Positions 4,801 through 53,893 of a stretch of 64,000 nt of DNA are shown here, one piece after another. Origin of the DNA: Xylographa opegraphella. Taxonomy: Eukaryota. Each line of letters opens with the position of its first letter. Within the stretch, counting starts at the first letter, position 1. A program made the translations under genes and the position numbers. The notes under the pieces were generated by a model, which worked only from the letters and a program-made list of their open reading frames with translations, ran no database searches and was not told the origin of the DNA. The DNA lies in NCBI GenBank assembly GCA_022813865.1, contig JALDZX010000075.1, positions 1-64,000 of the forward strand. Reading direction: 5' to 3'.

Positions 4801-5489
4801 TGGTACAGGCCGGGGCTCTGTCGTCGCCAGTTTACTTATTGCGGCCGGCGGTAGATAACTGTAAGATTCTTTGCCGAAAATTGGGGGAATCAGCGATGGA
4901 TCACCTTGAGACGCGAAGAACACCTCGGTGAAACGAGTCTTTGGTATTATTTTGGGTGACGGCTGAGTGTATTCCAAATAATCAACCTCCTCGTCAGAAT
5001 CAGTTTTTTCGTTATTCATTGTTGCCTGCGCTATATTGTCACGCTCTGTTGATTTGATTTCTTCACCATCATCGGCACCTTGGACTTCCTTGACATATGT
5101 TAGACCGCCATTGTCAAAGTATGGCGAAATAGTTGCTGTATCCTCACCTGCTGGGACGAGCCCTGAGATTGGTCATCTCTTCTGGTTGGAACACCCTTCT
5201 CTGTCTCACCACTGCGAGGGGTGTCAAAAGTACTGTCTGAATTGAACCTGCTTGAACTGCCTTCCGGGTCGGACGAAACCGCCTTCACGGTCACAGGTGT
5301 CATAGGTGCATCGTCAGTGTACAAATCAGCATCAGCAGAGTGCAGTTTCTCTTGAGCCGAAGCACCGAGAGACTGTTGGGCTGCATGGCTAGCAGATTGC
5401 AGCGGGGGAGGCTTTGAAAAGGCGTCGTCAGAATGCTGATCCTGGTGAGCCGTAGAGTCAATGTTCTGCAGAGATTGTTCTCCAGACAT
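1814..5489 (-). CDS. Large uncharacterised coiled-coil protein with a single C-terminal transmembrane helix, 3 exons (introns 5089-5147 and 3344-3447)
   Basis: ORFs 5100-5489, 3415-5019 and 1814-3304 join in frame through GT-AG introns with CTAAC branch sites. There is a long E/K/R/L heptad region, a disordered region, and the hydrophobic segment GLVWFLVSLCLLATFLMFMAL near the end. Confidence 0.7.
3128..3277 (-). repeat. Coding minisatellite: five degenerate 30-bp units (10-aa repeat GS[DN]xSxPIxx)
   Basis: Units align at a 30-nt period (gatggga...cat.gga.cc). They translate to GSDESTATKQ / GSDKSHPIKK / KSHGSSPTEV / GSDESNPINK / GSNDSSPIEE. Confidence 0.8.
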
Positions 5490-6114
5490 GCTGTCGGCTA
5501 TCTATCTGGACTTATGTGCCTACTGTCGGTACGATCCGCGATGTACCTTCTATCAACGACGATGGCACTGTAGGAAACGATGGAGACAGAGGGTTCATTC
5601 AAAGAACATGGCACAGTTTCACTGGCCATATGAGAACCACGAATACCACCTGTGCATTTCTTTGTCCGGACTTATGCTGCTCTTTATATAGCATCAACCT
5701 GCCGGATCCGGTCCGTTGTACGGAAGCACATTGGAAGACTACAATTGCTATTCACGTAGAGCACGAGATTTACGGTGAAGGGTGTCAGACACAAATACGA
5801 CATAGTTTAGTCTATAGGTTATCCGTATTTGCTGATGGTGCTTTGGACGATGATAATGGCTGATAGCGGCGCAAAGGGGTTGATTGGAAGGAAAGGGTGC
5901 CAAGGGCGCCTTGGCATGCTCGCATGAAGCCCGCGCACAGACCAGGTCGCCCAACAAGGCTACGTCGAACAGCTTGTGTGATTCGCTGGCGGTCAGAACA
6001 TGCAACGGAGCTTCTGATGTTGTTGGAGAGTGCCGATGTTGCCTGTAGCAGTGGTCGCTCAGTCTTGTCCTCTGCAGACACGGTGGTTTGCGACATGACA
6101 TATATGTCCTAGCG

Positions 6115-9100
6115 ATGTTCAACCTCAATGCGCTGGTCTTAAAAGCTCAATCCTTGATCGATCCGGCGTTGTCTCCCAGCTCCAACTCCTCTGAAAGGAA
6201 ACCAAGCAAAGCTACACTCTTCCGACATCAATTCCGTCTTCCGGACTCGGAATCTCCGTTACATGAGATCACTGCTGAGCTGACCTTGACCCTCCACACG
6301 CCTCTCAGTAACAGCCCGGCTTCGGCCGAGCGAAGTACCACTGCATCCCGGGGCACTGTCTATGCCGGGAAGTTACACTTAAGCGACAATTATCTATGTT
6401 TCTCCACCGTGCCTACGAGCTTTCAACCGAATGCTAGTTTACAAGCATCGAGCGCCTTCACAGGCCACACCCGCGGCACAGGTCCCGCAGGCAATGGCTT
6501 TACGCTACCTCTCTGCGCCATCAGGAAGGCTGAGCGGCTTCCCTCTCAAAATTCGATGTACGCGTTAGCCATAACAACCTGGAATGGCTTTACTTCCCCA
6601 AGCCCAAATGCAAGAGGCGATATTCAGAGACTTGTTCTCCAGTTGGTGGGCAGCCGTCAGGCTTGCGACAGATTCTGTGACAGTCTTAAGAAGGGATTGA
6701 GGCAGGGCATGAAGCAATTGGAGAATCTCAAGGTCGTTGTGGCGGAATGTTATTCGGAATATCTCCTTGCTGGGCCTGGCGGAAAGTCAAAAGATGTGAC
6801 CAATGCATCAAATATACAGAAAAAACCTCCAGATGCTGGGCTCGGTATCCTGCCGCTCTTTCGGTATCCGGGAAATCCAAGAAAATTACGGGATAGTAGC
6901 AAAATGAGGTTATGGGGCGAGTACCTTAGAGGTTCGTCTGACACAAGGATGCGTAGCTTTTCATGCTAAGTTGAGATGTTATGGCAGAGAATGGGCGAAA
7001 TGCTACTCTTGTGAAACAGCCTAAATTTCATCAGCTCATACGCGTGGGACTTCCGAATCGTCTTCGGGGTGAGATATGGGAACTCACTTCCGGCTCCTTC
7101 TTTGTCCGATTACAGGACCCTAGCTTGTATTCAAGAACGCTTGAGAAACACGCAGGACGGGAGTCCCTGGCCATCGATGAGATCGAGAAGGACTTAAATC
7201 GTAGCTTGCCGGAATATCCGGGGTTTCAGAGTGAAGAGGGTATCGGACGTCTACGACGCGTTCTTACAGCCTACAGTTGGGTCAATGAAGAAGTTGGATA
7301 CTGTCAGGCAATGAACATTGTTGTTGCAGCGTTACTAATGCAAGTGGCCGTTCGAGGTAAAGTGCCTTGCTAATATATGATAGATATATGTCTGAATCAC
7401 AAGCGTTCTCCCTCCTTTCGGTTTTGTGCGACCGTCTTCTACCCGGCTACTACTCGATGACTATGTATGGCACTTTGCTCGACCAGCGGGTTTTCGAGTC
7501 ATTGGTCGAAAAGACTATGCCAATTCTGTGGGAGCATCTGGTAAAGTCGGATGTACAACTATCCGTTGTTTCTTTGCCTTGGTTTCTGTCACTGTATATC
7601 AACTCTATGTCTTGGGAGCATGCATTTCGAGTACTGGATGTATTCTTTCTGGAAGGGCCAAAAGTTCTCTTCCAAATTGGGCTTGCAATTCTCCGAATAA
7701 ACGGAGAAGAGCTCTTAGACGTCGCAGATGACGGAACCTTTATCTCTATCTTAAAGACTTATTTTTCCCGGCTGGACGAATCGGCTCACCCAACGTCAGA
7801 GAACGAGAAGCATCGCTCGGTCACAAAATTCCAAGAACTCCTAGTGGTGGCGTTTAAGGAATTTGCAGGAATTACACAAAGTACTATCTCTGAGCAACGA
7901 GCGAAGCACAAAGATGCTGTACTTGACAGTATCGAGATCTTTGCCAAACGAACTTCTATCCGCAACCTTGGCCCTGATAGCAAACGGCTGAATGTTGATG
8001 ATCTGAGTTTTTTGTATGATCGATTCTATGGTACCTTGTATGAACAGGAACGAAATCTGCAAATGTTTCGAGAAGAGTCAAACAAGCGAGCGAAATCTGG
8101 CACAACACGGGCGACAGAGATAATCACAGGAATCGGTGGGAACACGAGTGTGGAAATGGGTCGTGTTGGTCTTGGGCCAAGTCCTGAAATTATGAACTAT
8201 GACGCCTTCCGAGAATTTCTAGCTGGCGTCACGAAATGGGCCATTGCAGATACGCCTAGGTCACCACTTGGAGAATTGTCTTTTGATAGCAGAAACGCTC
8301 GAACGCCAACTCCCAGAAGTCGGGATTTCCAATTGTCGCCAGCTGGCCGACTCAAATCAGAACCTGCGGATCATGACTTCATGCAACGACTTTACGGTCG
8401 GTGGAATAAGGACGATAAGGATGGACTTAGTCTACAGAATGTCGTTTCTGGACTGGCAGATATAAAGGGATCGATGGACTTGATGAACACGATAAGCTAC
8501 TTCTTCAGCCTTTACGACGATGACAGGGATGGTAAAGTGGGGCGAGAAGGAATACTTCGGATGTCAGAAGCACTCCTATTCCTTACACGAAGAGGACTGG
8601 AGGGTGATTTTACCATCATCGGCTTCTCAAACGGCGAGGCAAATGAAGCCTTGGATGATGATGCCTCGGGTGGTGGCCAGACTACCCATGGGTCGAAACT
8701 CGGCGAGAAATTCCTGAACAGTGTGAGCGCCTTCATCAGGCGATGCTTCGAATATGCCGATCCAGATCATCCACAGAATCAAGATGAAGCATCGTCCGGC
8801 AGTGGTGGCCTTCTGATCAATGGAATGGACAAATTCAGCATCGGCGACGATGATGAGGAGGACTTGATTGATGTGTCGGATGTCAGCGTCAGAAGCGTTT
8901 CCGTTTCGACGGAAAATGTCAGAAGCCCGAGCACTGCGTTGTCTTCCCCTCCACTACCAGACACACCGCGTACCCCACAAGCGAAGCAAGCAGCAAATCT
9001 GGCGCTCGACCCAGCCAACCCGCTCCACATCACCCTCCCCACCTTCCGCATGGTCATCCTCGCCGACGAACTCCTGCAACAGTTCTTCGAATTCTCCTTC

Positions 9101-20584: not shown

Positions 20585-23500
20585 ATGGCCAAGGCCCAAA
20601 GACTCAGACAAGAACGAGAGTCGACCTCCGGCAATGATATTCTGTCACGAATGCTACAGCTAGAGAAGCTAAGTCAGGTCAGTGAGTGCAGATGTTAAGA
20701 GTCGGCAATTGAAGGGCTTCGGACACGAAGAAGTTGAAGCTCACGATGCTGATGTTTTCCAAACAGCAACACCGACCATCTGTTTCTGAACAACCAACAG
20801 GTTCGTTTCGAAACTCGTCCATCGAATCACATCACCGTGAGACCGTGTCTAAGCACTTGGGCAAATCACCGACGGTTCACAGCGCGATGCCTGTTCCATC
20901 AATTCCGCTGCCACGAGCACATACCTCTCCCGACCTTGCAATGAAACCTGCGACTGACAACAAGAAGAAAACCTCTCCTATGTCTTTCCAGCAGAAAGAA
21001 GTAGCGGCTGTTCAGAGGCCACCTACTCCGACACCAGACATTTGCAAGTCGCCCAGTTGGTCTGACTACAATGGAGACAGAGCAAAGAAGGAAAAGAAGA
21101 AGACGGAAAAGGAACGGAAAGAGCTGGAGAAAGATCGGAAGGAGGCAGAGAAGAAGCGCAAGAAAGAGGATGGGAAGCAAAAGTGTGCACAACTCAAGGC
21201 GGCAAAGCGATTGAGCAAGAAGCCGCCTGCAGCAATGGACACACAACGGATGCCTGCAGCCTTGCTGCGACCTTCAGCACGACCACCATCAGACGCACAA
21301 ACATCATCTCAAGCTGACTCCAGATCTTCATCAAGGGAAAGAAGGAGATCATCTATCTCCTCCTTGACATCAATGCTACGACTTTCCAGGGATTCATGGA
21401 ATAAGAGCTCATCAACGGCATCGGAGCCTCCAAGCAGCTTCAAGCTGGTGAGCTTCAAGCCTGTTAGTGTCTCTGCACCCCAGCTAGGACAGCTGTCAGG
21501 TATCGAAACGCATTCGCGAACCCCATCAGCCGGTACACCAGGCTCTCGAAACTCGAACAGCGACCAGGAGTATCTGAAGGATCTTGCAAGCTTTGCATAT
21601 CAGCTACAGCTATCCTCTCAGGCGCCGGATGACGTCGAACTTGGATTGAGACAAATAAATGGAGTACGCCTCTCAGTGCCGTCAACACGATCATCACCGG
21701 AACAAACCGCGTCTGTTACATTGTCTCCTACACTAAAGGGAAATGATGCAAACCCCGTACTAGAGACTAGACCGAAGGACACAAAAGCTAAAGCACCACA
21801 GCGACCGGTTGCGTGGGGCCGTGGAAGTCTAGAAGATGGTTACTTTGGTGAGAAAGCGAATGGTCAGAAGGACTATGCAAAAGTGAAGCCAGTCGTTGCG
21901 AAAGATGACGAGGCATCAAAAACGTGGGCTGACGAAGGAGGCACATCAGACAAACTGAGCGAGGTTCACCAACAGCGTTCTAGTCAGTTGACTCCGGCTT
22001 TAATATCTGACGCCAAAGTGTTAGTGCACTCTTCTCGTGACGGAAGTAGTTATGTTCAGAAGCAGAGAATGTATCGGCAGCAACAGTCGATCGCTGGCTA
22101 TGAAGATGAGCTAGCATTTGAGTCGGCTGGTAAAATGGAAGAAAAGATACACGTTACAAAGGATCAATCAAACCTTCCTATGCTTAAAAAGTCATCTACC
22201 CTACGTCTTGAACAGCAGCTTCCTCGAAATCCGACAAGCGAGGAGAAGACCTCCGCTCCCCAAAGAGCGCCAGCTTCAAGCGGACCGAAGTCCTCGTCTC
22301 AGACCACATCTCCGACCCTGATCCCTCAAGCTCAAGAAATGACCGCAAAAAATGAAATCGTCAAGAAGAAGAAGAAAAAGATGCAGAATCTTGAACACAG
22401 GTCGTCTGGGGAAAGTTCTGACGAATATCATCGTTTTCTGGTTGAACGCACTCACAACCTCGGCATCAAACAAGCTAAAAAAGGATCACGAATACCCAAG
22501 GTAGAGAAGGTTCTGGGCGCCAATCTTTCTGACGGTGAAAATGCACCCCCATCGAAACGACGTTCTAGGTCAAATCGCATGGGCTCTGACCATTCTATAA
22601 CCACCTCCATGCCCAATGAGACTGTAAAGAGTCCGCAGCGAAGCGAAAGCAGTGATGATATGGCAGAGCCGATTCAGCACAAATTAAGGATGGACAAACC
22701 ACTTACTCCCAAGACCAACCGACAAACAGTAGTACTGGAAACACTGGCTATAAAGCAACCACCAACCCCGAACACTAATACCAAACCAAAACATCACAGT
22801 TTGCCAGTCGTTCCGAGATTCTCCACCACCCCTATTCTGCCCACGACTGGGAATCAAAGTTCAGCACCGCCTTCCGCGCCTAGCAACATTATTCCGAGCG
22901 CTACTTCTAAGCCCATAGTGGAACTGAATCCGGCTTCCAGATCACCCAAGACGGATATTGGCGACATTCTACCAGAATTCGTCATTAGCGGCGTGGAGGG
23001 CGATGGGCTCACCCGAAAGACATCATTGAAACGCCCTCGCTCCGATACCGGGCTCAAGCTCGACGTCCCCTCGAATCCATCCACCAATCCCGATGCCCTC
23101 CCTTCCTTCGACTTCCTCCCACCCCTCAAACACCAACCTCTCACCAAACCTAAACGCACTCCTCCTTCCCGCGTCAGCTTCGCGGAGCTTCCCACCACCA
23201 TCCCCTCCTCCTCAACCATGCCCACCTCCTCCAGCTTCCCCCAACCCTTCCGCCCCGCCCTCAAAGCCGACTACTGCTTCCCCTCCCCCAACGGCCCAAT
23301 CACCATCACCCCCGTCGCGGCGCACAACTCCCTGCACCCTGCGATGCGCACCTTCCACGGCCCGCCGCGGCCGCCCCGCTCCAGCTTGATGGGCCCGCCT
23401 TCCCTGCCCCTCATCAGCAACGGCCGCGCCGCCGACGAGGCCCTTAACGTCAAGCCGCTCGCGAAGATGTTCGTCATCTGCTGCAAGTGCAAGTTCTGGC

Positions 23501-23733
23501 ACGACATGCCAAGCAAGTTGTACGAGGCGATGGCGCTGCCGAAGCAGCTCGAGGAGCAGGCCGAAGGCGTGTCGGAGGGCGTAGCGGATGCAGCGAAGGG
23601 GAAAGGGAAGGGCAAGGCCCTGGACGGCAAGGTCTTCACCACGGTGACGTGTCCGTGGTGCGAGCATGCCATGAGCACGGGCTGCTGTGCCGGGTGGACC
23701 GCAATCGTCTACCTGCACGAGAGGCATCACTGA
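20585..23733 (+). CDS. Large, mostly disordered protein with a C-terminal Cys/His-rich putative zinc-binding domain; intron 20678-20766
   Basis: A 999-codon open frame plus an in-frame 31-codon upstream exon. The C-terminus reads KMFVICCKCKFWHDMP...CPWCEHAMSTGCCAGW...LHERHH. The start codon is uncertain. Confidence 0.75.
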
Positions 23734-24315: not shown

Positions 24316-26673
24316 CTAGTCATCATCTTCCTCCTCCGACCCTTCCGCATCTTCCATATCCACATCCCCATCCCCATCCCCATCCTCAACTCCCCCACCC
24401 TCCTTCCTCCCCCTCCTCCGCTCCTCCTCCTCCCCCCTCCTCCCCTCCTCCAACACCCTCTCCCGCTCCTCATTCCGCTTGCGCATGCTCAGCACAAACG
24501 CCCCCAGCGGCATATCCTCCCACGGGACATCCTTCAAAAAGGCATCCACACCGTCGCGATTACCGGGCGCGAAATCGACTTTCCGCCGCCTCTCCGCGAC
24601 GAAGCGGGCGTTGGCGTCCAGTTTCTGCAGCAGCAGCGCGACGGCGGCGGTCAGCTTGGCGTTCTTGTTGCCGCGGCCCTTGGAGGTGTGGTGGGGCCCG
24701 CGGTGCGGGGCCGAGGGCGTGGGCGGGGAGGAGACTTCTTTCAGCCAGCGCTTCAGCAGGACGGAGGGGGGGATGACGAGTTCCGGGAAGGCGATGCTTT
24801 GGGCCCAGACGGCGAAGAATTCGGCGAGTAGCTCGGCGACTTGCTCGCCGAGGCCGGTCTGGTAGACGCGCGTGTGGAGGTAGGAGGCTGGGGCGCGGAG
24901 GGTGGTGGCGAAGTCGAGGGGGCGGAGCGTGGAAGGCTTGGGGGGTTTCTTCAGCTCTGGGGATTGCAGGACTTCAAGGAGGGAGGGCGCGAGGGGGATG
25001 TAGGTGTTTGTGCTGCGGGAGAGGCGCAGTAGGGCGCGTGTGAGGTGGAAGCGCAGTGGGAAGTAGACCGGGGTCGGGATGAGGCGGAGGGCGCCGAGGG
25101 TGATTTGCACGAGGGGGTAGATGAGTGGGTGCAGTGGCGAGGCGGCGGCGGATTTGAGTTGGGGGTTTGTGGCGGGGGAGCAGTGCGTGGAGAGGACGCG
25201 GGACCAGAAGTCCAGGGAGTGGGTGTATTGCCAGTTGTAGATGGCTTTGTACGAGTCCTTGGTGGGGTGCGTGATGCTGGTGCGCAGGTGTATGGCCAAC
25301 TGCCGGATGTAGGTGAAGCCGGTGGTGTAGCCAATGGTAGGGTCGAGGCCCCAGAGCTCAGCGGCGGAGTTCTTCATCAGATTGATGCCTGGCAGAGTGT
25401 GAATGGTGGTGTTGCGGCTGCCTTTGATGAGACCTTGGTAAGTTGATTTGAGGACTGCTTCGCGGAGGGAGGCGTCGCTGATGATGGCGAGGCGGCGAAT
25501 AAGAAGAAAGGCGTTTATCCGGGTGGCTTCGGTGCTGGAGGGATCGGACCAGATGCTGATGACTGCTTTGATGAGATTCTTGAGGATCTTTTTAAATGAG
25601 AGTAGATACGGAAGAAGGGGTAAGATGGATGCCAGTGTCAGTTTGATTGTTGGCGCATCGGAAAGATTCTCTAGAAGATGATGCACTGATGTTGCATGAG
25701 ACTTCAGCAGCGGTGTCAAGGTGCGGAACTTCTTGGTATCAGTGGAGAAGCGGACTTTTCCTGATGCAGTCTCTTTTACGGGGAGGTGGTGCCCCAGAAC
25801 CTCCGGTACATGTTGTAGCGAGATGACCAGAAGCTGATGGTAGACTTCTGGGCTAGAGATCGTGTATTTGTACTCTTTCCCGTCCTCCTCGTTCACATAG
25901 GCCGCTGCCCGGAAAGCGAGGACAACCTGGCGCATCGCACGCAGAGAATGCTGTTCAGTCATAGCTTTCTGCCACTTGCTGACCATAGACATCGTGACCT
26001 CCGTCTCATCATCATCCTTCTCCTCTTCAGGTGGCTCAATTGTCTTGCCCTTCTTTTTCTTCTTCTTTGGTGGCTCGTCCTCACTCAAATCGTCAACCTC
26101 GGCCAGATCGCCATCCTCGGCAAAGTCTAGCAGCTCAGCATCGTTTTCTTTGAGGTATTTGTAGAATTCTGGATCCTTCTCTTTCAGAGCATCCAGATCC
26201 TCTCTGTGTGCCCCTGGTCGTTCTTCTGTTTCTTCTTCGGACGACGAATCGATAGCCAGAGCTTGATCCTCAAATGATGCATCAGATTCTCCACCGCCCA
26301 GCTCGCTATTATCGTCATCTTGAGGAGCATCTCGCTTTCTTTTGCCGCTTTGTGCCTTGGCTTCCTTGATCTTCGCCAGCTTCGAAGCTTTCTTCGTAGG
26401 TTCCGGAATTTCGAATCCGCCCTGGAAGAATTCGTCCACGGTCATGTCCTTCAATTTATCGGCATCCTTTGCTACCCTGCCATTATCTTTGGGCCCTTGT
26501 TCCTCTTCATCCTCATCAGCAACCTTGGCATAGTCGCTTGCATGCCGAGCTTGCTTTTTTGCTTTGATCTGCTGCCGCTGCTTTATCTTGGCGAAATCTT
26601 TTCGGCGCTCGATTGTGTCTTTGAGATGGTTCTTCTCGAACTTCTTGGTGGATTTTTTGCTATGCTTAGCCAT
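24316..26673 (-). CDS. NOC2: Nucleolar complex protein 2 (60S ribosome biogenesis), intronless
   Basis: Motifs KSTKKFEKNHL, LKEKDPEFYKYL, INLMKNS, FTYIRQLAIHLR, YNWQY, LIYPLVQ and SIAFPEL. Confidence 0.95.
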   Translation of the reverse strand: MAKHSKKSTKKFEKNHLKDTIERRKDFAKIKQRQQIKAKKQARHASDYAKVADEDEEEQGPKDNGRVAKDADKLKDMTVDEFFQGGFEIPEPTKKASKLAKIKEAKAQSGKRKRDAPQDDDNSELGGGESDASFEDQALAIDSSSEEETEERPGAHREDLDALKEKDPEFYKYLKENDAELLDFAEDGDLAEVDDLSEDEPPKKKKKKGKTIEPPEEEKDDDETEVTMSMVSKWQKAMTEQHSLRAMRQVVLAFRAAAYVNEEDGKEYKYTISSPEVYHQLLVISLQHVPEVLGHHLPVKETASGKVRFSTDTKKFRTLTPLLKSHATSVHHLLENLSDAPTIKLTLASILPLLPYLLSFKKILKNLIKAVISIWSDPSSTEATRINAFLLIRRLAIISDASLREAVLKSTYQGLIKGSRNTTIHTLPGINLMKNSAAELWGLDPTIGYTTGFTYIRQLAIHLRTSITHPTKDSYKAIYNWQYTHSLDFWSRVLSTHCSPATNPQLKSAAASPLHPLIYPLVQITLGALRLIPTPVYFPLRFHLTRALLRLSRSTNTYIPLAPSLLEVLQSPELKKPPKPSTLRPLDFATTLRAPASYLHTRVYQTGLGEQVAELLAEFFAVWAQSIAFPELVIPPSVLLKRWLKEVSSPPTPSAPHRGPHHTSKGRGNKNAKLTAAVALLLQKLDANARFVAERRRKVDFAPGNRDGVDAFLKDVPWEDMPLGAFVLSMRKRNEERERVLEEGRRGEEEERRRGRKEGGGVEDGDGDGDVDMEDAEGSEEEDDD

Positions 26674-27475
26674 GATGCATCCGTATAACCTCAATGGACG
26701 ATCTGGCTTCTGTGGTGCAGTGTCAATCCTGAATTGCACAGCACAAGTAATCTCTAAATCTTCGAAGCCGAATTTCGAAAACTACCACAGTAGTCGCGGG
26801 ACCGCCAAGCCAAGTCAGTAAAAATGATTAGGGTTCGGAACATGGTAACGCCGACGCCAAGATATTCTAGTACTTTACTTCAGTCAACTCGGACATTCTC
26901 ATGCATATGCCATTTATCCGCTGCTGTTGATCAAGATTACAAGTTCGATATCATCCATACTATGACGACCATTTCCCAATAGCATTATGTTCAACCTGAA
27001 AGTGCTGGCCCACTGGATGAGATTATGAACATAGACCCTGGATACACCAAGCTTTTCATCGGCCTTGTTCACGCGTATTAGCAGTGATCACAGAGACGAG
27101 TTTGAACGTGTCCTGGTTCGGAACAGCACCTTGGAACAGGCGTCCACTCTGAATGGGATGGCCTCTTTCTTACCAGCGAGTAATGATACATGGTCACAAC
27201 AAGACAAGGAAATGGAGATCTTTGGAGAGCCACAGCATTGCCGTCTACCATTCATGTGTTCCGAATAGCTCAAATGCTAACGGCTACATATGTCTTGAGA
27301 CTACCTCCCAAAGTGCATATTTGCACAGCCTCAAGTCTCGAATCCCTCATTCGTAATGAGACCATAACACCATAAAGGCCGTTCAACATAAGTTCTCATC
27401 CCAGTCCCGAGGGCCTTGTAACTCCCTTCAAGGCTCAGCAATGTCCCCATCCCAGTATCTCACTTTTCCCCAATA

Positions 27476-28588
27476 TCAGTAGTCCGAGAAGAGCTTACGC
27501 AATCGAACAGCGACAACCGCGTCACACACTATGCCAGAACAGAGGTATGCGATAAGGATTGGCCGGACAGTAACGAACACTTGCCTCGTGATTTTGGCGT
27601 CATACTGGAGTTCATAACGTGTCGCCACAACGCAACCAACACTGTAAAACTCCACGACGGCCAAGAATAACCACCAAGTCACAGCGTGGGTCCACTTGAA
27701 GCACTTCCATAGCATGGCTTGAAATTTGTTCCGTCTCACAAGAAGGGTGACTCCGATGGTAATCCAGATGACGAGTCGCAGAGTTGACCTGAGTGCGATG
27801 GATTGCCAAGGGATTGCTGTGTTGTTATTGAGGTACTCGTAAATGGCACACTGTTGTAGGATGACCAATACAAGCACTGCAGGCCAGAAAAGTACGTGAA
27901 AAATCAAGACAACCAGCATGCCGAAAATGGCAAGCAGTAAGGTGGCTGTACTTATTGTTGCTTTTAACCATTGGCGGTCATCGATTCTGTGCCATGTACT
28001 AGTTGAATGTGGTATGTCCGTCAGCCATTCAGCCTCAGTTTTCATACTTGATTTCTCTGATATCTCGTGGTCAGTTCCAGGTGCAACTTGTTTCCGCTGT
28101 CTGGCTACTCCTAAGACACAGAGGATACACGTTATAAACATAGCTTTATTTGCCAATCGTAAATAAATTGCTGATGCTGGATGGCCAGATTTGTGCTTTG
28201 GCTGAGGCCCCGGTTCAGGATCATCATCGTTGCTGCAATGTTGCCCAGACTCAACCTTGAAAGCCTCTTTCTCGTAAAGGGCGGCTTTCTCATCAAGAGC
28301 AGCCGCAACAATCTCACCTCCTTTCGCACCGCCAATATGCACAAGGTATCGGCTTTTGAAAATGTAGCGGTCGATTGCAAAGGTTAAGACAAGGATAGTG
28401 AAGAGTAGAACGGTAAGATGCGAGGTTTGTATCGATAAAGTCCAGATTCCCCCATTGTAAACAGGAAAGCTGAGGACAGAGTGAAGCTCTTGCAAGCCAA
28501 AAATTCCGTCGATGAGACTGATTTCGTGTCCAAAGTTGGCATTAGTGACATTTGTAGTGGCAGCGTCCACTGATAACATGTCGGCCAT
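27476..28588 (-). CDS. Uncharacterised multi-pass membrane protein (about 6-7 hydrophobic segments), 370 aa
   Basis: An uninterrupted 370-codon ORF from ATG with several ~20-aa hydrophobic stretches. No family motif recognised. Confidence 0.6.
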   Translation of the reverse strand: MADMLSVDAATTNVTNANFGHEISLIDGIFGLQELHSVLSFPVYNGGIWTLSIQTSHLTVLLFTILVLTFAIDRYIFKSRYLVHIGGAKGGEIVAAALDEKAALYEKEAFKVESGQHCSNDDDPEPGPQPKHKSGHPASAIYLRLANKAMFITCILCVLGVARQRKQVAPGTDHEISEKSSMKTEAEWLTDIPHSTSTWHRIDDRQWLKATISTATLLLAIFGMLVVLIFHVLFWPAVLVLVILQQCAIYEYLNNNTAIPWQSIALRSTLRLVIWITIGVTLLVRRNKFQAMLWKCFKWTHAVTWWLFLAVVEFYSVGCVVATRYELQYDAKITRQVFVTVRPILIAYLCSGIVCDAVVAVRLRKLFSDY

Positions 28589-29439
28589 ACTTGCCTCTAC
28601 ACTGCACTACGGGCAGCGAAGTATGAAATTCTCAAGAGGAAGAGTGAGTTAGATATTTTACGAACTAGTTCAGAGACCACTTGTATGGCAGTAGAAGTCC
28701 AGCCACCAATAAAGATCTGCTGCAAGACGTGGTTTGTTATTCGTCGTGAAGGGGTTATACCTTACATTCTTTGCGTAAGGTAAGGTAGGTAAGGAAGCTA
28801 AACCGCATAAAGGAATTTGGAATAAACTACCTCCGGAGCGAAACAATATTCATCACCAGGGCCTAGTGAGTCTCCGAACACCAGCCCTTGATCACTGCAA
28901 CAAAGTTCTTAGTGACTTGAGCGGGCGTGACCCCTAATTCTAGCGAGGCACTTCGCACTTAAAGGTAGGTTACTCTATGATAATCAATTGTGCTTCCATT
29001 TTATGTCCACCGGGGGTAAATAGCTTCCATGAACTCTCCTAGATCAACCGAGCTTCCACGGTCTCCACAACATATAACTTTATCCCTTATCTGGAACCAC
29101 TACGATATTTTCCACGTACACAATAGCAAGGCTTTGTATGCAGCAGGCAGTCAGAGCGAAGTCCTCAAGAAAACGCTGCAAAGCGCAGAGACAAAAAACC
29201 ACATTGAATCGAGCATGTAGGAATAGCAGCCTCATATAAATTTTTATCTATGCAACTTCTCTCCTACAGCACTCTATCACCAAACATTGAACGACAGTGG
29301 TATCAATCCTCCAAGCAAACACCTCATATCTCCATCAGACAAAACTCCGCTTCCCGAGACTCCTGCATGTACGCAAACCGTTTACCATGCACACACCTCA
29401 TGTTGAATTACGTCGGCTCGGTCGATCCTTCCCCGAAAT

Positions 29440-29550
29440 TCACTGAATGACACATGGCACGACGGTGAGAGTGGATCCAGTCTTGATGGGAGCGTTGATG
29501 GGACCGGATGTTTGACTGGTGCCGGAAGGGACGACTTGAGTTTCAGGCAT
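29440..29550 (-). CDS. Candidate a-factor-type (CaaX, farnesylated) peptide pheromone precursor, 36 aa: MPETQVVPSGTSQTSGPINAPIKTGSTLTVVPCVIQ*
   Basis: A short ORF ending in Cys-Val-Ile-Gln-stop. It is preceded by a branch site and acceptor (actgac...ttcttaaacAG|a ATG), an upstream GT-AG UTR intron and a TATA box. There is no signal peptide. Confidence 0.75.
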   Translation of the reverse strand: MPETQVVPSGTSQTSGPINAPIKTGSTLTVVPCVIQ

Positions 29551-29671
29551 TCTGTTTAAGAACAATTGTCAGTCGCCTATAGCGATGGACGATGGAGAGC
29601 AGGCTCGCTTTGTTAAAGTTAAAGGCTGGCGGAGTATCGGCAGGTGATAATGGTGGAGCGGATTGGTTATG

Positions 29672-29725
29672 CTGAAGGGATATCATTAGCAGTGCTACAT
29701 ATCAGTCGGAACAAGGCATAGTTAC
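29672..29725 (-). other. 5'-UTR intron of the CaaX-peptide gene (54 nt)
   Basis: AAG|GTAACT donor, GCTAAT branch site, cccttCAG acceptor. The length matches other introns in this window. Confidence 0.7.
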
Positions 29726-29797
29726 CTTGTAGACTGTTTGTGACTGTTCGGATTGATCTTGGAATTGATGAGAGGAGACGAGGGCAGAAGATGGTCC

Positions 29798-29804
29798 TTA
29801 TATA
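29798..29804 (-). promoter_or_regulatory. TATA box (TATATAA) of the CaaX-peptide gene
   Basis: The minus strand reads ctTATATAAggacc followed by a CT-rich tract, about 70 nt upstream of the first UTR intron donor. Confidence 0.65.
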
Positions 29805-31321
29805 GAATGAAGAAGAGAGTAGTCGCCTGTTCTAATTTGATGCTCAACTGTCTCCCAGCTCGTATAAGAAAATGGAGTACTAGCTACAAGCAGAGAGTCC
29901 TTCCTCATGATGCGGGCAAATCCCAATCTTGCACTGGAGATGGCTTCCTTCGAGAACAAACTTCCAAAGTCTAGACTGTGCGCCATGCCTTTGGCACTCT
30001 CGTATTCGCCTCGCAACAGGCATACCGAGTGAAATGAATCAGGCCTACGTATTCGCCTTACACCAATCCGAAGAAGGTTGATATGTTCGAGCGAAGAACA
30101 GCACGACGCAGATAATTGGTCACTGGCTTACCGACGAATTTCAGCTGGAAATGCTAGTAATGCAGGCAGTATTGAGCCACGTTTTAGGGCAACGCCGCCC
30201 AAACAAACAAGCACAGTAGCGTGCGTCGTAACACAAACCGGCCGCTGATGGGTCCCAGTATCTTGACACACACCCTCTAGAACATGACATGGAAGCACAG
30301 AAGAACACTGAGCAGGACTATCGGAACACACACTTTGCTGTCTCGTTTTTGCTCACCAGTCTACCGCACCAGCAACAAAGTCCCTGTAGAGCTCATAAGT
30401 GTACAAGCGATACTCATCACCGGATGATTGAAGTGTCGCGAAGTCACCGCACAGGCAAGGCCGTAACTTGGGCATAAGAGATCTTCAGGACTGGCAAGGC
30501 GGTGACAGCTCCGAGATTTGGTACCCTAAGCGAGTCTAGCGCCCCGCCCTCTCGAGCCTAGCATGTCCAGCCCCTTGCTTACGCCACGGTTCGACTTTCC
30601 CTATCAGTCTAGACGGCAACGTGGCGTTGATCTCGAGCTCCATCGACCAAAACTTGAGCATTATCCGCTGCCGATGAGCTGGGAATTGAATGAACTTAGT
30701 TTACTCTCACCGGGTCTGCCGTCCCGTTCAGCTGCTGTCCGTCGTGCGCGGCTTGCCCGACTCGTATTGCAGAAGGGGCATTGAAACGTCCTTCATGTCT
30801 GGCAAACGTGAGTTGTGTAGCATGCGTTGACCACATCGAACTCCGACGAATTGCGGGAAACTCTATGGCGCTTGGACTGGGTATAGTCGAACGTCGATCG
30901 CATTATTCCGGTACTGCCATCATGCATCTTCATGTGCGAGCTTTCTGCACAGCGCTGGCTTGAGAGGCAGCGAACCTGGTTAATTTCACAATTGTATGAA
31001 CCAAAGTGCTTGTGAGAGTGCTTCTATGCGCCTATGCCTTTGCCGTCGATGCGAATGTTCGTCCCACAACATACTCTCCTCCACCTATGACCTCCCGTAC
31101 CTCCGTTATCAGCCGTTGTGCTGGTTATCTCTAGCCAAGGCCTCGCTATCACAAGTATGCGAGTTTGCGAGGTCGAGCCACGAATACCTTTCTCATTGTA
31201 ACCGCAAAATAGACTCTACGTCTTCATCAACATGGTATTTGATCGTAGGGGGAGTGGCTAGTACCTCTCAGACAGTTTCCTGAACGCCTCCATTTCCAAG
31301 TACACCTGTTCTTCTTTTCGC

Positions 31322-33882
31322 CTACGCACACTGTCGTTGATTGTCTGAGAACATTCTCAGCTCCGCCCTTGTGTACAAACTTATTGACGCCTGTCCAGTT
31401 TCAACAGGATTTGGAGCAAACACTTCCTCGTGGAGTCCCTCGCACCCATATCGAGTACCTGCCTTTAAGGGTCTCACATCTTGACTGCTGAAACCTGCAT
31501 ATTCAGTACCGTCCGCAGACTGCCATATCGCTCCATACATCAATTTCTTTAGTGCCGCATTTTCATCTCCCGGGGGTGCATGGCAAGCTGCCGAGATGGC
31601 CAAGCTGCAGCTGCCCATGATTGGCATACCTGCGTGATACTTCCTCGTGCCGATCGCCCACAGTGCTAGACTTGCAAGATAGCCAAGAAAGATCGCGGTG
31701 GCAAGTGCGGGAGCCGACCAGCCGCAAGCCTGTACAGTGCTCAAAAGTTGCTCATTTACGTCGAAGACGTTGATTTGAACGAAGAATACACTTTGCGAAA
31801 AGGCCCAGTGAAGTGCACCGAATATGATCATCAATGGTATTGCATAACGGTAAGGCAATTGCAGGTAATAGGTGGAGCGTTGGGCGCCTTGAGGATTAGA
31901 TACTCGCAGAGCTTTGCGGTGAACTGCGTACGAATTCGTCTCAGCCGTAAGCAGCATACCGGTATACAGAGAATTATATAAGAAGTAGTTGACAGAGAGC
32001 AGCATTTGAGGCATGTTAGTGACTAGGATGGTTCCCGTAAGAGACATTCCAACGGTGACGTTGATAAGGCTGTTCATGGAAACCGCACCAAAGCCTGCTG
32101 TCCAAACAGTGGAGATTCCCGCGGTAGAATTGTATGTTGCGAGGTAGATCAAACCCAAGCTTATAGTTAGCCAGAAAAACATGCTTCTAGAATTGTTCAC
32201 CATTAGTTCATTAACATAATGAGCAACGTTCAGACTTACAACCAAACTGTAGCAAAAAAACGACGAGGGCTGGCACCACTAGACCACACAGGTTTCCGAG
32301 GTTGCCACACTTTCGACGGAGGATTCCAGCGGTAGGTCTCTGGATAGTGAAATATTGTCGGCCGGCTTCTCATTTCGTCTTCCTGTTTATACACAACATC
32401 ACGCTCGGATATAGTCCCATCACCCAATGATGTATGATCGGGAATTGCTAGAAAAGAAGCAATCGCATCTCCGACGGTGATCAAAGGTAGAAAGTCAGCA
32501 ATGAGTAGTGTTGCCAGCAGGCACAGTACTTTGACTGCGTTACAGATCAGTACCACAGCGAGAACAGGCTGGTTAATCTCAATCCTGCAATGTCCGACAG
32601 CGGACTCTGCCAAGCAGTGATCGATATGCAGAACTGATCCTTGTGTTGGTGCTGAGCAAATTCCCACACTTTGGTGGTCTGTGGGTCCAATAATCGAAGT
32701 ATTGAAGTCAAGGTAAGAGTATTGATAGGAAGGGCAGCTCCAGTCCGCGAATTTCCAGGCATCAGGTACTTTTGGTAGGTTTGCTGCACAGCCAGTATAG
32801 GTGTTGGTGGAAGGACCACTGACATAGCTAATCAAACTATCACTTTTGGTCACATTATTATAGCCATCATCAGCAATGTTGCTAGCGCAGAGCCAAGCCC
32901 ATGGCGAACTTGAACCAGAGAAATTGTAGGGAAATATGTTGTGCACTGTGTCTTGGCTGGTTGAACCCGAAACGAGTAACACGTTGTGCCAATCAGACAT
33001 AATCTGGTTGCTGTAAGCGTTGATGCAGTCAACATTCTCGAGCCTTGTGAGGGTGTGTGCGTTCTCCTGTAATGCTTGAATCAGCTGTATGTTGGCACCA
33101 GTGATACGTTCCGAATGAGTACTGTCAGTCATGTTGATCAGAAGGCGTGTCTGATTCCAAGACCCTCCAGTGGGAAAGTTCTCAGCAACCAGGACTGCTA
33201 CATAATTTGTAGAAGAGCGCGAGCTGAACAGAACTGAGTTGTAGCTAAAGAATTAGTTCTGTGCACTGTGTATTTATGGAACAGATTCTGAGTGTACGTC
33301 TTACAGCAAATGGAGGGGTATAGAGCTTAAGCCAAGCAGAATCCACAATATGCTTCGCAATAAACAAATAGAGCCCAAATTCCCGACACTCGGAACTCCT
33401 ATGATCAGCCAGGAGCCTTGCGCGTGTGACCTATCAACCTCAGCTCGGGTAGGAGAGCTCAGGCATTGCATCCCCATGTTGTTAGCCCCCAGGAGAAGCG
33501 TGCTGAAGACGTTAATAGCCAAATGGGACCATGTAGATATCCTGGACATTTCTTCGCAGGAACCTTCGAAGGCAATTGCAACGCCATTGCTGATCTGGAG
33601 CCTCGCATTAACCCAGCAAAAGATGGCAGTATTGATGAGCATGACGACGAATGCTGTAACCATTCCAGCGGTGACTCCGGTTCGCCATCCACCACGAAAG
33701 TGCCGTAATATACTTTTGGGTCCGGTTTTTGTTTTTTTGTATGATTCACTATCCACAGTACCATCGAGGGATATCTGTGATCTGTTGTCATTCTGAAATT
33801 GGAGTCCAATAAGGGTACTTTCATCGACTGCATCCTGCACCTCCAGTAGTGGTGCAGTCACATTGAGACGGCGATTGGTCAT
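31322..33882 (-). CDS. Fungal multi-pass membrane protein resembling the DUF6536 family; introns 33245-33304 and 32187-32239
   Basis: Motifs GWRTG, HLAINVFSTLLLGANN..MQCLSSPTRAEVD..H, SSIPLHLL|YNS, PLITVGDAIASFL, GAQRSTYYLQLPYRY and SCSLAISAACH. Three ORFs join in frame. Confidence 0.8.
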
Positions 33883-35553: not shown

Positions 35554-36722
35554 ATGTCGACTACTACTACCACAACCATCTCCAAGTCCAATGTTGGTGT
35601 CTACACAAATCCTGCTCATGATCTTTGGATCGCCGAGTCCAAGCCTACGTTGGAGGAGGTGAAAAAGGGTGAAGGATTGAAAGATGGAGAGGTCACTATC
35701 GCGATCAAAAGCACTGGCATCTGTGGGTCAGTTACACTGCATCTATTATATCATAAGCGCTGATTCCGTGTTCACTTTGCAGATCCGATGTCCATTTCTG
35801 GCATGCTGGCCGGATTGGTCCCATGATTGTGGAAGATACACATATATTGGGCCACGAGTCAGCGGGTGTCATCTTAGCGGTACACCCTTCAGTCAAAAGT
35901 CTCAAGCCAGGCGATCGTGTTGCCATCGAGCCCAACATCATCTGCGGTCAATGCGAACCCTGCCTGACTGGGCGATACAATGGCTGTGAAAAGGTTGAAT
36001 TTCTCAGCACCCCACCGTTTCACGGTCTCCTCAGACGCTACGTCAATCATCCTGCGGTATGGTGCCACAAAATTGGAGATATGAGCTTTGAAAATGGCTC
36101 GATGTTGGAGCCCTTGAGTGTTGCTCTGGCTGGAATGGAGAGAAGCGGTGTCAAGCTCGGAGACCCAGTCTTGATATGTGGAGCAGGCCCGATCGGCCTC
36201 GTCACACTGTTGTGCTGCAATGCAGCGGGCGCAGAGCCCATGGTAATCACAGATATCGATGAAGGCAGACTCAAGTTTGCAAAGGAGCTTGTGCCAAGAG
36301 CAAGGCTCTACAAGGTTGAACGAGGCGTCACCCCGGAGCAGGCTGCTGAGGATATCATCAAGCTAGGCGGAAACGTCAAGCCGTCGGTAGCGCTTGAATG
36401 CACCGGTGTGGAGAGCAGCATTGCAAGTGCCATCTGGAGCGTCAAATTTGGCGGCAAGGTATTTGTGATTGGGGTCGGCAAGAGTGAAATGAGCATACCA
36501 TTCATGCGATTGAGTACTCAAGAGGTCGACTTGCAGTTTCAATACCGATACTCGAACACTTGGCCAAGGGCGATTCGACTGGTAGAGAGTGGCGTGATAG
36601 ATCTGAAGAGACTGGTCACGCATCGCTTCGATATCGAAGATGCTGTCAAGGCGTTTGGAACGGCGGCAGATCCCAAGACGGGAGCTATCAAGGTGCAAAT
36701 CCAGAGCGAAGTCGACATCTAG
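35554..36722 (+). CDS. lad1: L-arabinitol 4-dehydrogenase (zinc medium-chain dehydrogenase, pentose catabolic pathway); intron 35727-35782
   Basis: Motifs [36 protein letters not shown], structural Zn CGQCEPC...[25 protein letters not shown] and GAIKVQI. TATATA lies at 35484-35489. Confidence 0.9.
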
Positions 36723-50364: not shown

Positions 50365-53300
50365 TCACTGTGCTTCATCATCGTCTCCGGTTTCTGTCTC
50401 ACTAGCCCTCTCGCTGGATTCCGATGCTTCCTTTTCTCCCTTCTTCGCTTTCCTCATCACTCTGCTCCAGGACAAGCTAGGACGGCCACCCTTTTCGTGC
50501 TGTGGCGTGCTCGAAGCGCTGTCGAGACTCTTTCCGAGTTGCTGGTCGCTGGAAGCATCCTCGTCCACCTCGCCGGGAGTCGATGGTTCTCCAGCCTTTT
50601 TTGAAAAGAGACTGCCACGTTCTTTCGACCATGGGACGTTGAACTTACTTGAACTACTTTTCCTAGTGATGCGCTGCATTAAGGTCTCTTTGGGAACGAC
50701 ATTGTTAGCACTATCAGATGCACTGGCCGAAAGGGCGTAGTCCAAAGAATCATGAGATTCCGAAGTGGCTGTAGCGATGGAACGTGCATCCCTCGATAGG
50801 CGCGAGGTCGGAGGAGAAGAGTCCTCAGGTCCATAATCTGATTCGGTGTCCTTGGCCTTCTCGATTTCTTTCCCCTTGGAGTTTGTACTTTTCTTAGCTT
50901 CGTTACGACTGAACAGGCGAGTGGTGAAAGAAGGTGCAGCTGGGTTCAGCTTTGGTGTGAGAGCGCTTTGTCTGGCCTTGGATCTTCCTGTGCCAATTGG
51001 CGCTGGAGGAGATATCCCACTTGCGTAGGAAGAAGAGTAGTCGTCAGGATCCAGAGGTGTACTGCCAAGTGAGAGATTGCTTGTGGAACCATGTTGCATT
51101 GATGCTCGACGGGACTGACTGCGTGACCACGGACCACCAATCGATGACCAATCGGCAACCAAGGGACTGCTTCGCTGATGAGTACCATCCGATGGACCCC
51201 AGCCAAATGGCTGGCTATCTGACGAAGGTCTTGGTAAAGCGTTTTCGAATGAATACGTCGATGATGGCCTTGGAGACGCGGATCTGTGGATTGGTACTAA
51301 TGGATCTGATGGCTCAAGCTTCGTACCAAACATGTGCAGTCGGCTTCTCCGTGTCAGGCCAAGACTTGGTCTTAATGTAGGATCTCCGTCGCCCGTCGTG
51401 CTAGAACCAACGATGTTGCGAGCTAAGAAATTAGACATGGGGTTCGTCCACGTCCCGGATCCTAATCTGCGGCGTGCAGAACCAATAGGGTCGAGTGGAC
51501 CTTGATCAAGGTTACGTGGAAATGACTGACTTTGACCTTGTTTGAGAGTGCCCAAAGGAGGTGATTCATCGATCGATGCTTTGCCGCGCTGACGATTGAA
51601 GTTGAATAAGCCTGTCAGTCTACGTCCATTCAATGCATTAGTTTCCGCAGGTAGGCCAGGTGCAAAAGGAGAGCTAGTGGAGTTGATGGAGCGGCGGTCG
51701 ATATCTGTGCCTTGGTCACGCGACGAGTAATAACTAAGGGGATTGTGCACACTCTCGTGAGGGCTTGACATCAGGCTTGGTGATCTGCTGTTGACGGATA
51801 ATGGAGACTGCGGGTCCTGACTGTTGGAGTCGACGTTGGACGACATGTACGTGTTAAGAGTATGTGTAGTCATACCGCTTTCCATTCCACGCTGGGAAGG
51901 AAAGTTGAAAGCATGGCTTGTAGGGTCATCATCGCGGAGAAGATTTGATGGTATCAATGCATTGGCTGTAGGGCTCATCAGAGCTCCGCCAGTAAGCATT
52001 TCAACTTCTCGCTGTGACATGGTCGAGTGCTCAGGGCCTCCTGCAACCGCCATACCATTGTTAACATTGAAGAAGGGAGAAGTAGACGAGTAGATAGGTG
52101 ACATGCTTGAGATGCTGTTGAGTGTAGAGTTATGATTGGGATAGCCAGAAGATGATTGGGATATGGTGCTTGCTCGCGAGGCTCCTTGGCGCATCCTTCT
52201 CGGTGCGTGTACAGCGGCAGATGCAGGAAAGTCGAGGCCAGGGATAGGCGTAAACATGTGTGGTTCTTTGGCACGTTTATTGAGCAAGAAACTGAGACGC
52301 TCGTCGATTTTTCGGGCTTCGGATTCTGCCTGCATAACTATGAGCCAATGTGAAGTGATCTTATCTTTTGAAAAACATACCTGTTGGTGCGCTTTATATA
52401 GAGTCGCTATCTGCGCTTGATATTCCTGAATCCTCTTCTCGTGGGCCTCTTCTTCGTCTCTCTCACGTTTCTCGGCCTCTCGTTCCTCCTCATTCTGCTC
52501 ATCATCATTTTTCCTCTTTTGGTCTTCTAGAGCCTTAATCTTAACGCCCCAGACTCGTATTTCCTCTTCAAGGACCTTTATATCAGCATTGCCTTCATCA
52601 ATTGTTTGTCGCATTGAAGCCATGTACTTCTCGTGGGCTTCGGCCAACTCAGCCTTTTCCTTTTGCATTGCCTGCGTGTTTTCACGCATCTCGATGATCT
52701 CGGCTTTCCATCGTATGACCTCATCACGCTTTTTTTGAGACTCGGCCTTTCTCTGTTGCAACTGTCGTTCCTTTGCTGACTTCTTCCTTTGTGCAGCTTT
52801 GCACTGCTTCTCAAGCTCGTTGACTTGCTTCTTGAACTCGAGATGCGCTTTTTCCTTTTCTTCCACTTTCTGTCTTAATTCTGCAATCTCCTTCAAACCG
52901 GCTGCTTTGACGCGTTCATTTTCTGCCAATTCCTCCGCATTCTGCCTATCGATCTCTTCTTGCTGACGTCTCAACGAGTTAAGTTTTTTGGTCAGAAACG
53001 CTACAGTTTCTTCTGACTCGTACTCGTCGCCGCCATGTCCGGAATTCGACGGCTGACCATTTGTGTGCTCATTGTCACTTGTTGTTGATTGGCGTCCGGA
53101 AGTTGACTCCTTCTGCTTTTGAGCTAATGCTCGTCGTTCTGCAGCAGCAGCCAAGAGTTTCGGCGCTGTAGCCCCCGTGAGCGGAATCGTCTGAATTCGA
53201 ATGAGCCTCGAGAATGAGGAGAAGCCGGCAGCATTGGTCGCAATTGCACGGATACCGTAGTAGTTGCCCGGTACTAGGCCAGTGAGTGTGACAGAGACAT

Positions 53301-53893
53301 CATTACGATTAAATTCACCGACTGTGACCGTCCATGTTAGTGGATGTGTTATGATTTTTGAGCGTTGGACGAGGAAGCGAAGCCATATTTACCTTTGATA
53401 CCATTGATTTGAATAAAGTGTCGGAGAGGTGAATGGTAATTTTCAGGAGGTTTCCAGTATAGTAGCACTGAGTCATGAGTGATAGTAGACAGCGCTACAT
53501 CTGGTACAGGTGGAATATCGAAGCCTAAGATCACTTCCAATGCTGGAACAGGTATCTTGTAGACCTGGTAAATACGATAAAGGATCCTGTAAAGAATAGC
53601 CACGTCAGAAGGATATCTTATCAATCTCAGATGGTTTCCAATTACCACGTGACAGAAGCAGTCCATGCTATGTTCCATATCGTCCTTCCGATGTAATCGA
53701 TGTTTTCGAACACCCATATGGCAGCGGGTTCCAAATCTCGGAGGAGTCCAAAAAGCCACCACATAGCTTCGGCATACCACTGAAGTGGTGTCATCCACCA
53801 CGAAATTGTCTGACTGCCTACGAGTGGCAGTTGGGTGGTGGCTTCATAACTGCGACCGTGAACGAGATTCTGGATATCGTGTTCAAATGCCAT
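50365..53893 (-). CDS. Fibronectin type III domain and coiled-coil protein, about 4 exons
   Basis: The spliced FN3 strand pattern reads SVLLYWKPP...IQINGIK|VGEF...VTLTGLVPGNYYGIRAIATNAAGFSS. A coiled coil and an S/P-rich tail with KLNPAAPSF (PAM2-like) follow. Confidence 0.8.

Follow-up and report, generated by a model that had tools for sequence, protein, structure and literature searches.

On the minus strand of the window (the 64,000-nucleotide stretch of contig JALDZX010000075.1 that was analysed as a whole), an open reading frame (ORF) of 36 codons ends in a CaaX motif and is preceded by a TATA box, a pyrimidine tract and a putative leader intron (Table 1). Here we evaluate whether this ORF might encode an a-factor-like lipopeptide pheromone precursor, as proposed in a first-pass annotation of the DNA. 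All sequence elements on which that proposal was built, i.e. TATATAA, the pyrimidine tract, a 54-nt GT-AG intron and the 36-codon minus-strand CaaX ORF, were found where the annotation had placed them. The predicted product is MPETQVVPSGTSQTSGPINAPIKTGSTLTVVPCVIQ (36 aa). Between its flanking stops the frame spans no more than 42 codons. Ten of the 36 residues (28%) are Ser or Thr, there is a single Cys, one Lys and one Glu, and neither Tyr nor any other aromatic residue is present. The N-terminal part, MPETQVVPSGTSQ, was judged by eye to be hydrophilic.

Table 1. Coordinates of the candidate locus, of putative regulatory motifs and of other features of the window (position 1 is the first base of the window)
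Feature	Position	Strand	Remarks
TATA box TATATAA	29798..29804	-	direct sequence reading
Pyrimidine (CT) tract, presumed transcription-start region	29767..29794	-	24/28 pyrimidines; starts 10 nt after TATA-box start
Putative 5' leader exon 1	29726..29797	-	ATG-free; predicted to end at donor GTAACT
Putative intron of the 5' untranslated region, 54 nt	29672..29725	-	donor GTAACT, branch CTAAT, acceptor CAG
Putative 5' leader exon 2	29551..29671	-	ATG-free; A at -3 of start codon
Second branch/acceptor-like motif CTGAC...AACAG	29552..29572	-	directly before ATG
Candidate pheromone precursor ORF, 36 codons + stop	29440..29550	-	ATG at 29550, TGA 29442-29440
CaaX codons, Cys33-Val-Ile-Gln	29443..29454	-	CVIQ directly before stop
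Presumed 3' untranslated region	29200..29439	-	C 0.14, G 0.31
HMG-box-like core AACAAAG	30374..30380	+	~570 nt upstream of TATA box
HMG-box-like core AACAAAG	29608-29614	-	
HMG-box-like core AACAAAG	28899-28905	+	
Likely real intron, 53 nt	32239-32187	-	GTAAGT...CTAAT...TAG
Likely real intron, 52 nt	55975-56026		joins two halves of LNS2 domain
Membrane-protein gene, 370 aa, multi-pass-looking	27476-28588	-	no Pfam family; 38 relatives
Noc2	24316-26781	-	
Zinc alcohol dehydrogenase	35757-36722	+	

The presumed transcription-start region lies in a C-rich, G-poor part of the minus strand, and among the 51 TATAWA sites in the window only two, that of the candidate included, are followed within 66 nt by a tract with at least 24 pyrimidines in 28 nt. 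The stretch from the TATA box to the start codon contains three ATGs (at 29719, 29700 and 29686), and all of them fall inside the 54-nt intron, so that its removal would leave an ATG-free leader. For comparison, of 5100 segments of 250 nt drawn at random from this sequence 167 (3.3%) lack an ATG altogether, and in 13 of 4933 (0.26%) a single intron-like splice is sufficient to turn the segment ATG-free. The length of the putative intron and the placement of its branch site are as in two likely real introns of the same genome; the inference of introns from pairs of ORFs is noisy, and these two (32239-32187 and 55975-56026) are the only convincing cases. A second branch site with an acceptor directly before the start codon had been taken in the first-pass annotation as part of the leader structure. 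The motif is indeed there, but no canonical donor (GTRNGY) is present for it in 29671-29573, and a second leader intron would therefore be without a donor of its own; at most, we infer, the motif provides an alternative acceptor for the donor at 29725. At the other end of the ORF the base composition of the minus strand flips sharply at the stop codon (29431-29450): within the ORF C is 0.37 and G 0.18, and the 240 nt that follow have C 0.14 and G 0.31.

The codon usage of the ORF resembles that of coding DNA. With a codon table trained on the 22 long ORFs of the window, the candidate has a coding log-likelihood of 5.09 bits and ranks fifth among 142 intergenic short ORFs. True coding chunks of 36 codons have a mean of 5.97 bits (standard deviation 4.6, n=264) and the intergenic short ORFs a mean of -1.95 (standard deviation 4.28); calculated from these two distributions, the likelihood ratio of coding versus intergenic is approximately 3.5 for the candidate. 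Its frame is also the best of the six, the other five scoring 1.36 bits or less.

The CVIQ ending is a motif that a plant farnesyltransferase is known to accept. In the kinetic data of PMC3017772 it has the highest kcat/Km (8.9) of four GFP-BD substrates of the Arabidopsis farnesyltransferase (PFT), compared with 5.3 for CVIM, and it is reported there as a poor substrate of the geranylgeranyltransferase (PGGT1). For this plant enzyme in vitro, the data thus agree with the earlier statement that Gln as the X residue is compatible with farnesyltransferase. Genes for a-factor-like precursors have been sought elsewhere as ORFs of at most 100 aa with a terminal CAAX or CPAX and an N-terminal part rich in Ser and Thr, and further by a GY motif close to the C-terminus, by conservation among related species and by expression (PMC10569646). 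The candidate is a very short stand-alone ORF that is not joined to its neighbours, it has a CAAX ending directly before the stop codon, and the Ser and Thr residues counted above give it the S/T-rich N-terminal part.

Taken together, these sequence features suggest that the ORF is a real a-factor-like lipopeptide pheromone precursor, encoded by a small gene with a transcript of its own in a lichen-forming Lecanoromycete. This is the reading we favour, with the grounds for accepting it and for doubting it in about equal balance. It retains the pheromone-precursor identity of the original proposal, now supported by the stand-alone ORF with coding-like codons, the farnesylation motif, the likeness to Sordariomycete precursors and the rarity of the combination (see below), while the Eurotiomycete setting and the second intron with its own donor have been given up. 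By analogy with the biogenesis of yeast a-factor (PMC2134810, PMC2148179), the TATA box and the pyrimidine tract would direct transcription start and give a short mRNA, from which the 54-nt leader intron would be spliced out to leave a leader free of ATGs. The 36-residue precursor, which presumably has no signal peptide, would be made in the cytosol and farnesylated at Cys33 of CVIQ, whereupon VIQ would be removed and the new C-terminal Cys carboxyl-methylated. The hydrophilic, S/T/P/Q-rich N-terminal part would be trimmed and the peptide exported by a non-classical route. The product, a hydrophobic farnesyl-peptide ending in ...TLTVVPC(farnesyl)-OMe, might then be recognised by a Ste3-type receptor of the mating partner.

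The main alternative, which we consider possible but not probable, is that of a chance ORF: a C-rich, G-poor intergenic or promoter tract would by accident hold an ATG, 35 open codons and a Cys four codons ahead of a stop, and the TATA box, the pyrimidine tract and the intron-like motif would be there by coincidence or as parts of a non-coding transcript. A number of observations fit this view and weigh against a pheromone gene. To begin with, a CaaX end by itself is no more than what is expected by chance. The scan for short CaaX ORFs suggested in the first-pass annotation was run on the window, and among 451 ORFs of 20-60 aa there were 20 with Cys at position -4 and five with C-aliphatic-aliphatic-X. 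The same point is made by the fungal locus L005, where three tandem 30-codon ORFs ending in CVYC or CICC, upstream of Noc2, had appeared as a lead. They were rejected as off-frame artefacts because they lie inside a 99-bp-period array within a 918-aa ankyrin-repeat ORF, and they show that chance CaaX ORFs are common. Intron-like patterns are likewise frequent (0.62 per kb per strand, present in 8.5% of 250-nt windows), and the donor GTAACT is off-consensus, without the usual G at +5. No Ste12-type TGAAACA element was found near the ORF. The candidate has no GY motif near its C-terminus, and among the precursors inspected in two published lists the last residue is M, A, V, L or I, and none was seen to end in Q (S2 and S10 Files, PMC10569646). 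According to Wilson et al. 2023 (PMC10569646) the GY motif is conserved across the Sordariomycete a-factors and occurs in 87 of those from Leotiomycetes, but it is not universal, since it is absent from the yeast and from many Colletotrichum entries (S2 File, PMC10569646).

Searches for relatives of the peptide add further points on the same side. With the 42-codon stop-to-stop reading as query, a word-index search for protein relatives at near lengths gave no candidate. A search among longer proteins with the ORF gave eight word-sharing candidates, none at E ≤10, and HMMER over 1.84 billion representative proteins gave no match at E ≤0.001. No usable match to the candidate peptide was obtained in the ESM Atlas, and a degenerate DNA pattern for the last 10 residues and the stop codon matched nothing in the metagenome contigs. 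These searches are weak tests throughout, since ORFs of this kind rarely enter annotations and the statistical power of a 36-aa query is low.

We also compared the locus with metagenome DNA of related gene order. Genome contigs scanned with a pattern from the 370-aa neighbour gave 62 pattern matches, of which none was confirmed. A search with Noc2 as bait returned 48 fungal metagenome loci, none of which exceeds 70% identity over long matches, and in five of them (L002, L003, L004, L006 and L033) an alcohol dehydrogenase gene lies approximately 9.6 kb upstream of Noc2 in divergent orientation, as in the window (approximately 9 kb). No comparable CaaX ORF was found between Noc2 and the alcohol dehydrogenase gene in these five loci, which represent more distant lichen-type fungi. 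Their interval also lacks both of the genes that intervene in the window, and in L002-L006 it carries an ankyrin-repeat array. The Noc2-alcohol dehydrogenase interval is thus a conserved frame with variable content, and the loci are too distant to decide on the conservation of the candidate. As to the array itself, the 918-aa ankyrin-repeat ORF of L005 occupies 4485-7241 (+) with approximately 10.5 copies of the 99-bp period, and the same array occurs in L002, L003, L004, L006 and L048.

Since the CaaX end alone is uninformative, we assessed how rare the full combination of features is. After removal of near-duplicates, 32 of 49 sources were left, i.e. the window and 31 fungal loci with 435,622 bases in total. 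Among the short ORFs in this set 109 have Cys at -4, 29 of these end in CAAX or CPAX, 13 are intergenic, two have a single Cys, and one has at least 20% Ser+Thr. This sole survivor is the candidate ORF, which has in addition a TATA box and, even without splicing, 133 nt of ATG-free leader. Among 953 intergenic short ORFs, a canonical farnesylation box occurs once, in the candidate itself; the frequency is 0.39 for the absence of any other Cys, 0.114 for an ATG-free leader of at least 130 nt and 0.126 for a TATA box, and 104 of the ORFs (0.109) have Ser+Thr of at least 25%. When these feature frequencies are multiplied, with independence assumed, approximately 0.005 chance look-alikes are expected per Mb of intergenic-like DNA. 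This estimate is optimistic, because few ATGs, few Cys and many Ser, Thr and Pro codons all follow from a C-rich, G-poor strand, and strand composition by itself would account in part for the high S/T content, for the presence of just one Cys and for the missing ATGs. Given that such a strand favours several features jointly, we therefore added a simulation conditioned on composition. Among 60,000 tracts with the composition of the candidate tract there were 94 canonical CaaX ORFs, of which 35 had a single Cys, 12 of these were S/T-rich and none had a 130-nt ATG-free leader; similarly skewed tracts occur approximately 528 times per Mb. Under both null models chance look-alikes are expected below one per genome, and we discount these figures heavily because all thresholds were picked post hoc with the candidate already known. 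A chance origin would also have to account for codon usage in the coding range in the best of six frames, for leader ATGs that all fall in the intron, and for a strand composition that flips exactly at the stop codon.

We think it unlikely that the ORF is a genuine small gene whose prenylated micro-peptide product serves a role other than mating, e.g. a membrane-anchored regulatory, developmental or self-signalling peptide. The sequence evidence for a transcription unit with a translated, prenylatable ORF would be the same in that case. Moreover, no MAT, receptor, Ste6, Ste14 or prenyltransferase gene was found among the 23 long ORFs scanned in the window, and this lack of a mating link, together with that of a Ste12-type element, speaks for another role. 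Ascomycete pheromone genes are, however, normally unlinked to mating genes, and to our knowledge lipopeptide pheromone precursors are the only well-established fungal class of proteins this short, S/T-rich and free of a signal peptide with the sole Cys in the CaaX motif. The MP-x-T start and the composition are, in addition, as in published a-factor precursors (PMC10569646).

That the ORF is part of a larger gene is very improbable. It could be an upstream ORF or first exon of the 370-aa gene, or the final exon of a prenylated protein encoded upstream and joined through the acceptor at 29552, and in support of this both neighbours are on the same strand, the acceptor-like motif directly precedes the ATG, and small GTPases typically have S/T/P-rich tails with a CaaX end. 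Against the first version, the best relatives of the 370-aa protein (369-403 aa) cover 98-100% of the query and seven of eight were aligned without an N-terminal extension, the eighth having one of 29 residues that is unlike the candidate peptide; 850 bp separate the stop codon of the ORF from the ATG of the 370-aa gene, which has its own CT-rich proximal region, and the ORF holds no canonical donor. Against the second, none of 67 open segments (at least 28 codons, both strands, 28600-31330) reaches the Pfam cut-off (best E-value 0.025), the longer-protein search was empty, no further coding-like segment was found adjoining the candidate on the minus strand, and the upstream gene ends at its own stop codon 1.8 kb away. 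Neither an Rfam family nor a tRNA was detected in the interval around the candidate.

Returning to the putative pheromone gene, we looked at its flanks. The sequence AACAAAG, taken as an HMG-box-like binding core, occurs 10 times in the 64 kb (8.07 expected), and three of the copies cluster in a 1.5-kb interval that includes the ORF. An HMG-domain mating regulator might act through them, which we regard as a lead only as the interval was picked post hoc. An 18-nt element is present twice (30001-30018 and 30048-30065, 83% alike and 47 nt apart), approximately 200-260 nt upstream of the TATA box, with the common core GGCGAATACG on the minus strand; it may be a paired regulator site or a product of chance. 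In the presumed 3' untranslated region a 17-nt element is likewise repeated (29311-29327 and 29385-29401, 88% alike and 74 nt apart). Direct repeats in the promoter and the 3' region are at chance level, the 17-nt pair being as expected in 2.9 kb.

The lineage was placed on the basis of the relatives of one gene, that of the 370-aa membrane-protein neighbour. Its closest named relative is a hypothetical protein from Xylographa vitiligo (MMC15_003212, 65% identity), followed by hypothetical proteins from X. carneopallida, X. pallens, X. parallela, X. soralifera and X. bjoerkii (55-51%), and next after these six species comes a protein from Alectoria fallacina (49%), another Lecanoromycete. Xylographa belongs to the Lecanoromycetes, Ostropomycetidae, Baeomycetales. 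Because its nearest named relatives are from Xylographa and Alectoria, the window is assigned to a lichen-forming Lecanoromycete, and the earlier discussion of the gene in terms of Eurotiomycetes does not hold. Among the 38 relatives of the 370-aa protein, all that carry a source name are from lichen-forming fungi (the same seven species), and Trp, Phe and Cys are invariant at many positions of the family, which appears to consist of membrane proteins restricted to this lineage.

Like Noc2 and the zinc alcohol dehydrogenase, further genes in the window are of the housekeeping type (2-hydroxyacid dehydrogenase, RabGAP-TBC, lipin, TAF9 and a bZIP protein), and none relates to mating or to prenylation. 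At 31322-33252 (-) there are two overlapping long ORFs of 318 and 338 codons without a Pfam family, which are most simply understood as one gene of approximately 600 aa joined by the predicted 53-nt intron listed in Table 1. Two ORFs of approximately 1006-1007 codons, at 20713-23733 (+) and 50368-53388 (-), likewise match no Pfam family at E ≤ 0.001.

Genes for a-type pheromones escape homology searches because they are too short and evolve too fast. Within the Pezizomycotina, such genes have been reported from Sordariomycetes, as putative ones from Leotiomycetes (2023, PMC10569646), and from Aspergillus fumigatus (2025). For lichen-forming fungi no pheromone gene was found in the literature searched, which discusses only pheromone receptors, and if real the present ORF would give the Lecanoromycetes their first candidate gene for an a-type pheromone, as far as that literature goes. 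Mating of lichen fungi is hard to study because of their slow growth. A candidate ligand would make partner recognition directly testable and would provide an expression marker for the sexual stage in thalli; should the ORF be a product of chance, it calibrates how convincing a false positive can look.

The candidate was compared with published precursors by eye only, without an alignment score, and the precursor data referred to below are, unless stated otherwise, those given in PMC10569646. Precursors of Saccharomycetaceae (33-38 aa) are in the same length class as the candidate and share with it a CVI-x type of CaaX motif, a proline close before the Cys and a hydrophilic N-terminal extension that is presumably removed. 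The yeast entries start with MQP, MEP or MKA, unlike the MP-E-T of the candidate, and they have a charged, K/D/E/N-rich extension and an aromatic-rich mature part, whereas the candidate has no aromatic residue, one Lys and one Glu.

The putative Leotiomycete a-factor (the BCIN_13g03330 family) has, like the candidate, an S/T-rich N-terminal half and a proline directly before the CaaX Cys, the latter being found also in several Huntiella entries. This family is conserved in at least 111 species, expressed in three heterothallic species and usually unannotated, and it was identified by the same logic as the candidate, i.e. a short ORF with a CaaX end. The Leotiomycete proteins are longer (45-64 aa versus 36 aa), have many internal Cys (a conserved C-x-x-C...CCC block) where the candidate has a single one, and mostly end in CTVM rather than CVIQ. 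From Eurotiomycetes, a class other than that of the window, the a-factor-like pheromone PpgB (ppgB) of Aspergillus fumigatus has been reported (Krappmann et al. 2025, Curr Biol 35:2414, cited in PMC11787670 and PMC13712828), and judging by its title this is the same kind of molecule as we propose here.

With the Sordariomycete precursors (Neurospora crassa, Sordaria macrospora, Podospora anserina, Chaetomium globosum and Gibberella zeae) the candidate has in common that they are very short stand-alone ORFs with an S/T/Q/P-rich body, an N-terminus that does not look like a signal peptide and a single Cys within a terminal C-V/T-V/I-X, and the expected processing is the same (farnesylation, aaX removal and methylation). 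The start in the Sordariales, Chaetomium, Podospora and Fusarium entries is MPST versus MP-E-T in the candidate. Differences are the length (21-24 aa versus 36 aa), the residues before the Cys (GY, or G/S-Y, versus V-V-P-C) and the X residue (M versus Q), and the likeness that could be seen is one of composition and of the first residues. Judged in this way the candidate appears closest to the Sordariomycete type. We put forward, tentatively and with somewhat more doubt than confidence, that this may be the first lipopeptide pheromone gene of a lichen-forming fungus, that the MP-x-T start and the S/T/Q/P-rich body could be common to it and the Sordariomycete genes through one ancestral Pezizomycotina gene, and that the same signature (a TATA box, a leader that splicing leaves without ATGs, and a short S/T-rich ORF whose only Cys is in a farnesylation box) would find the missing genes of other classes.

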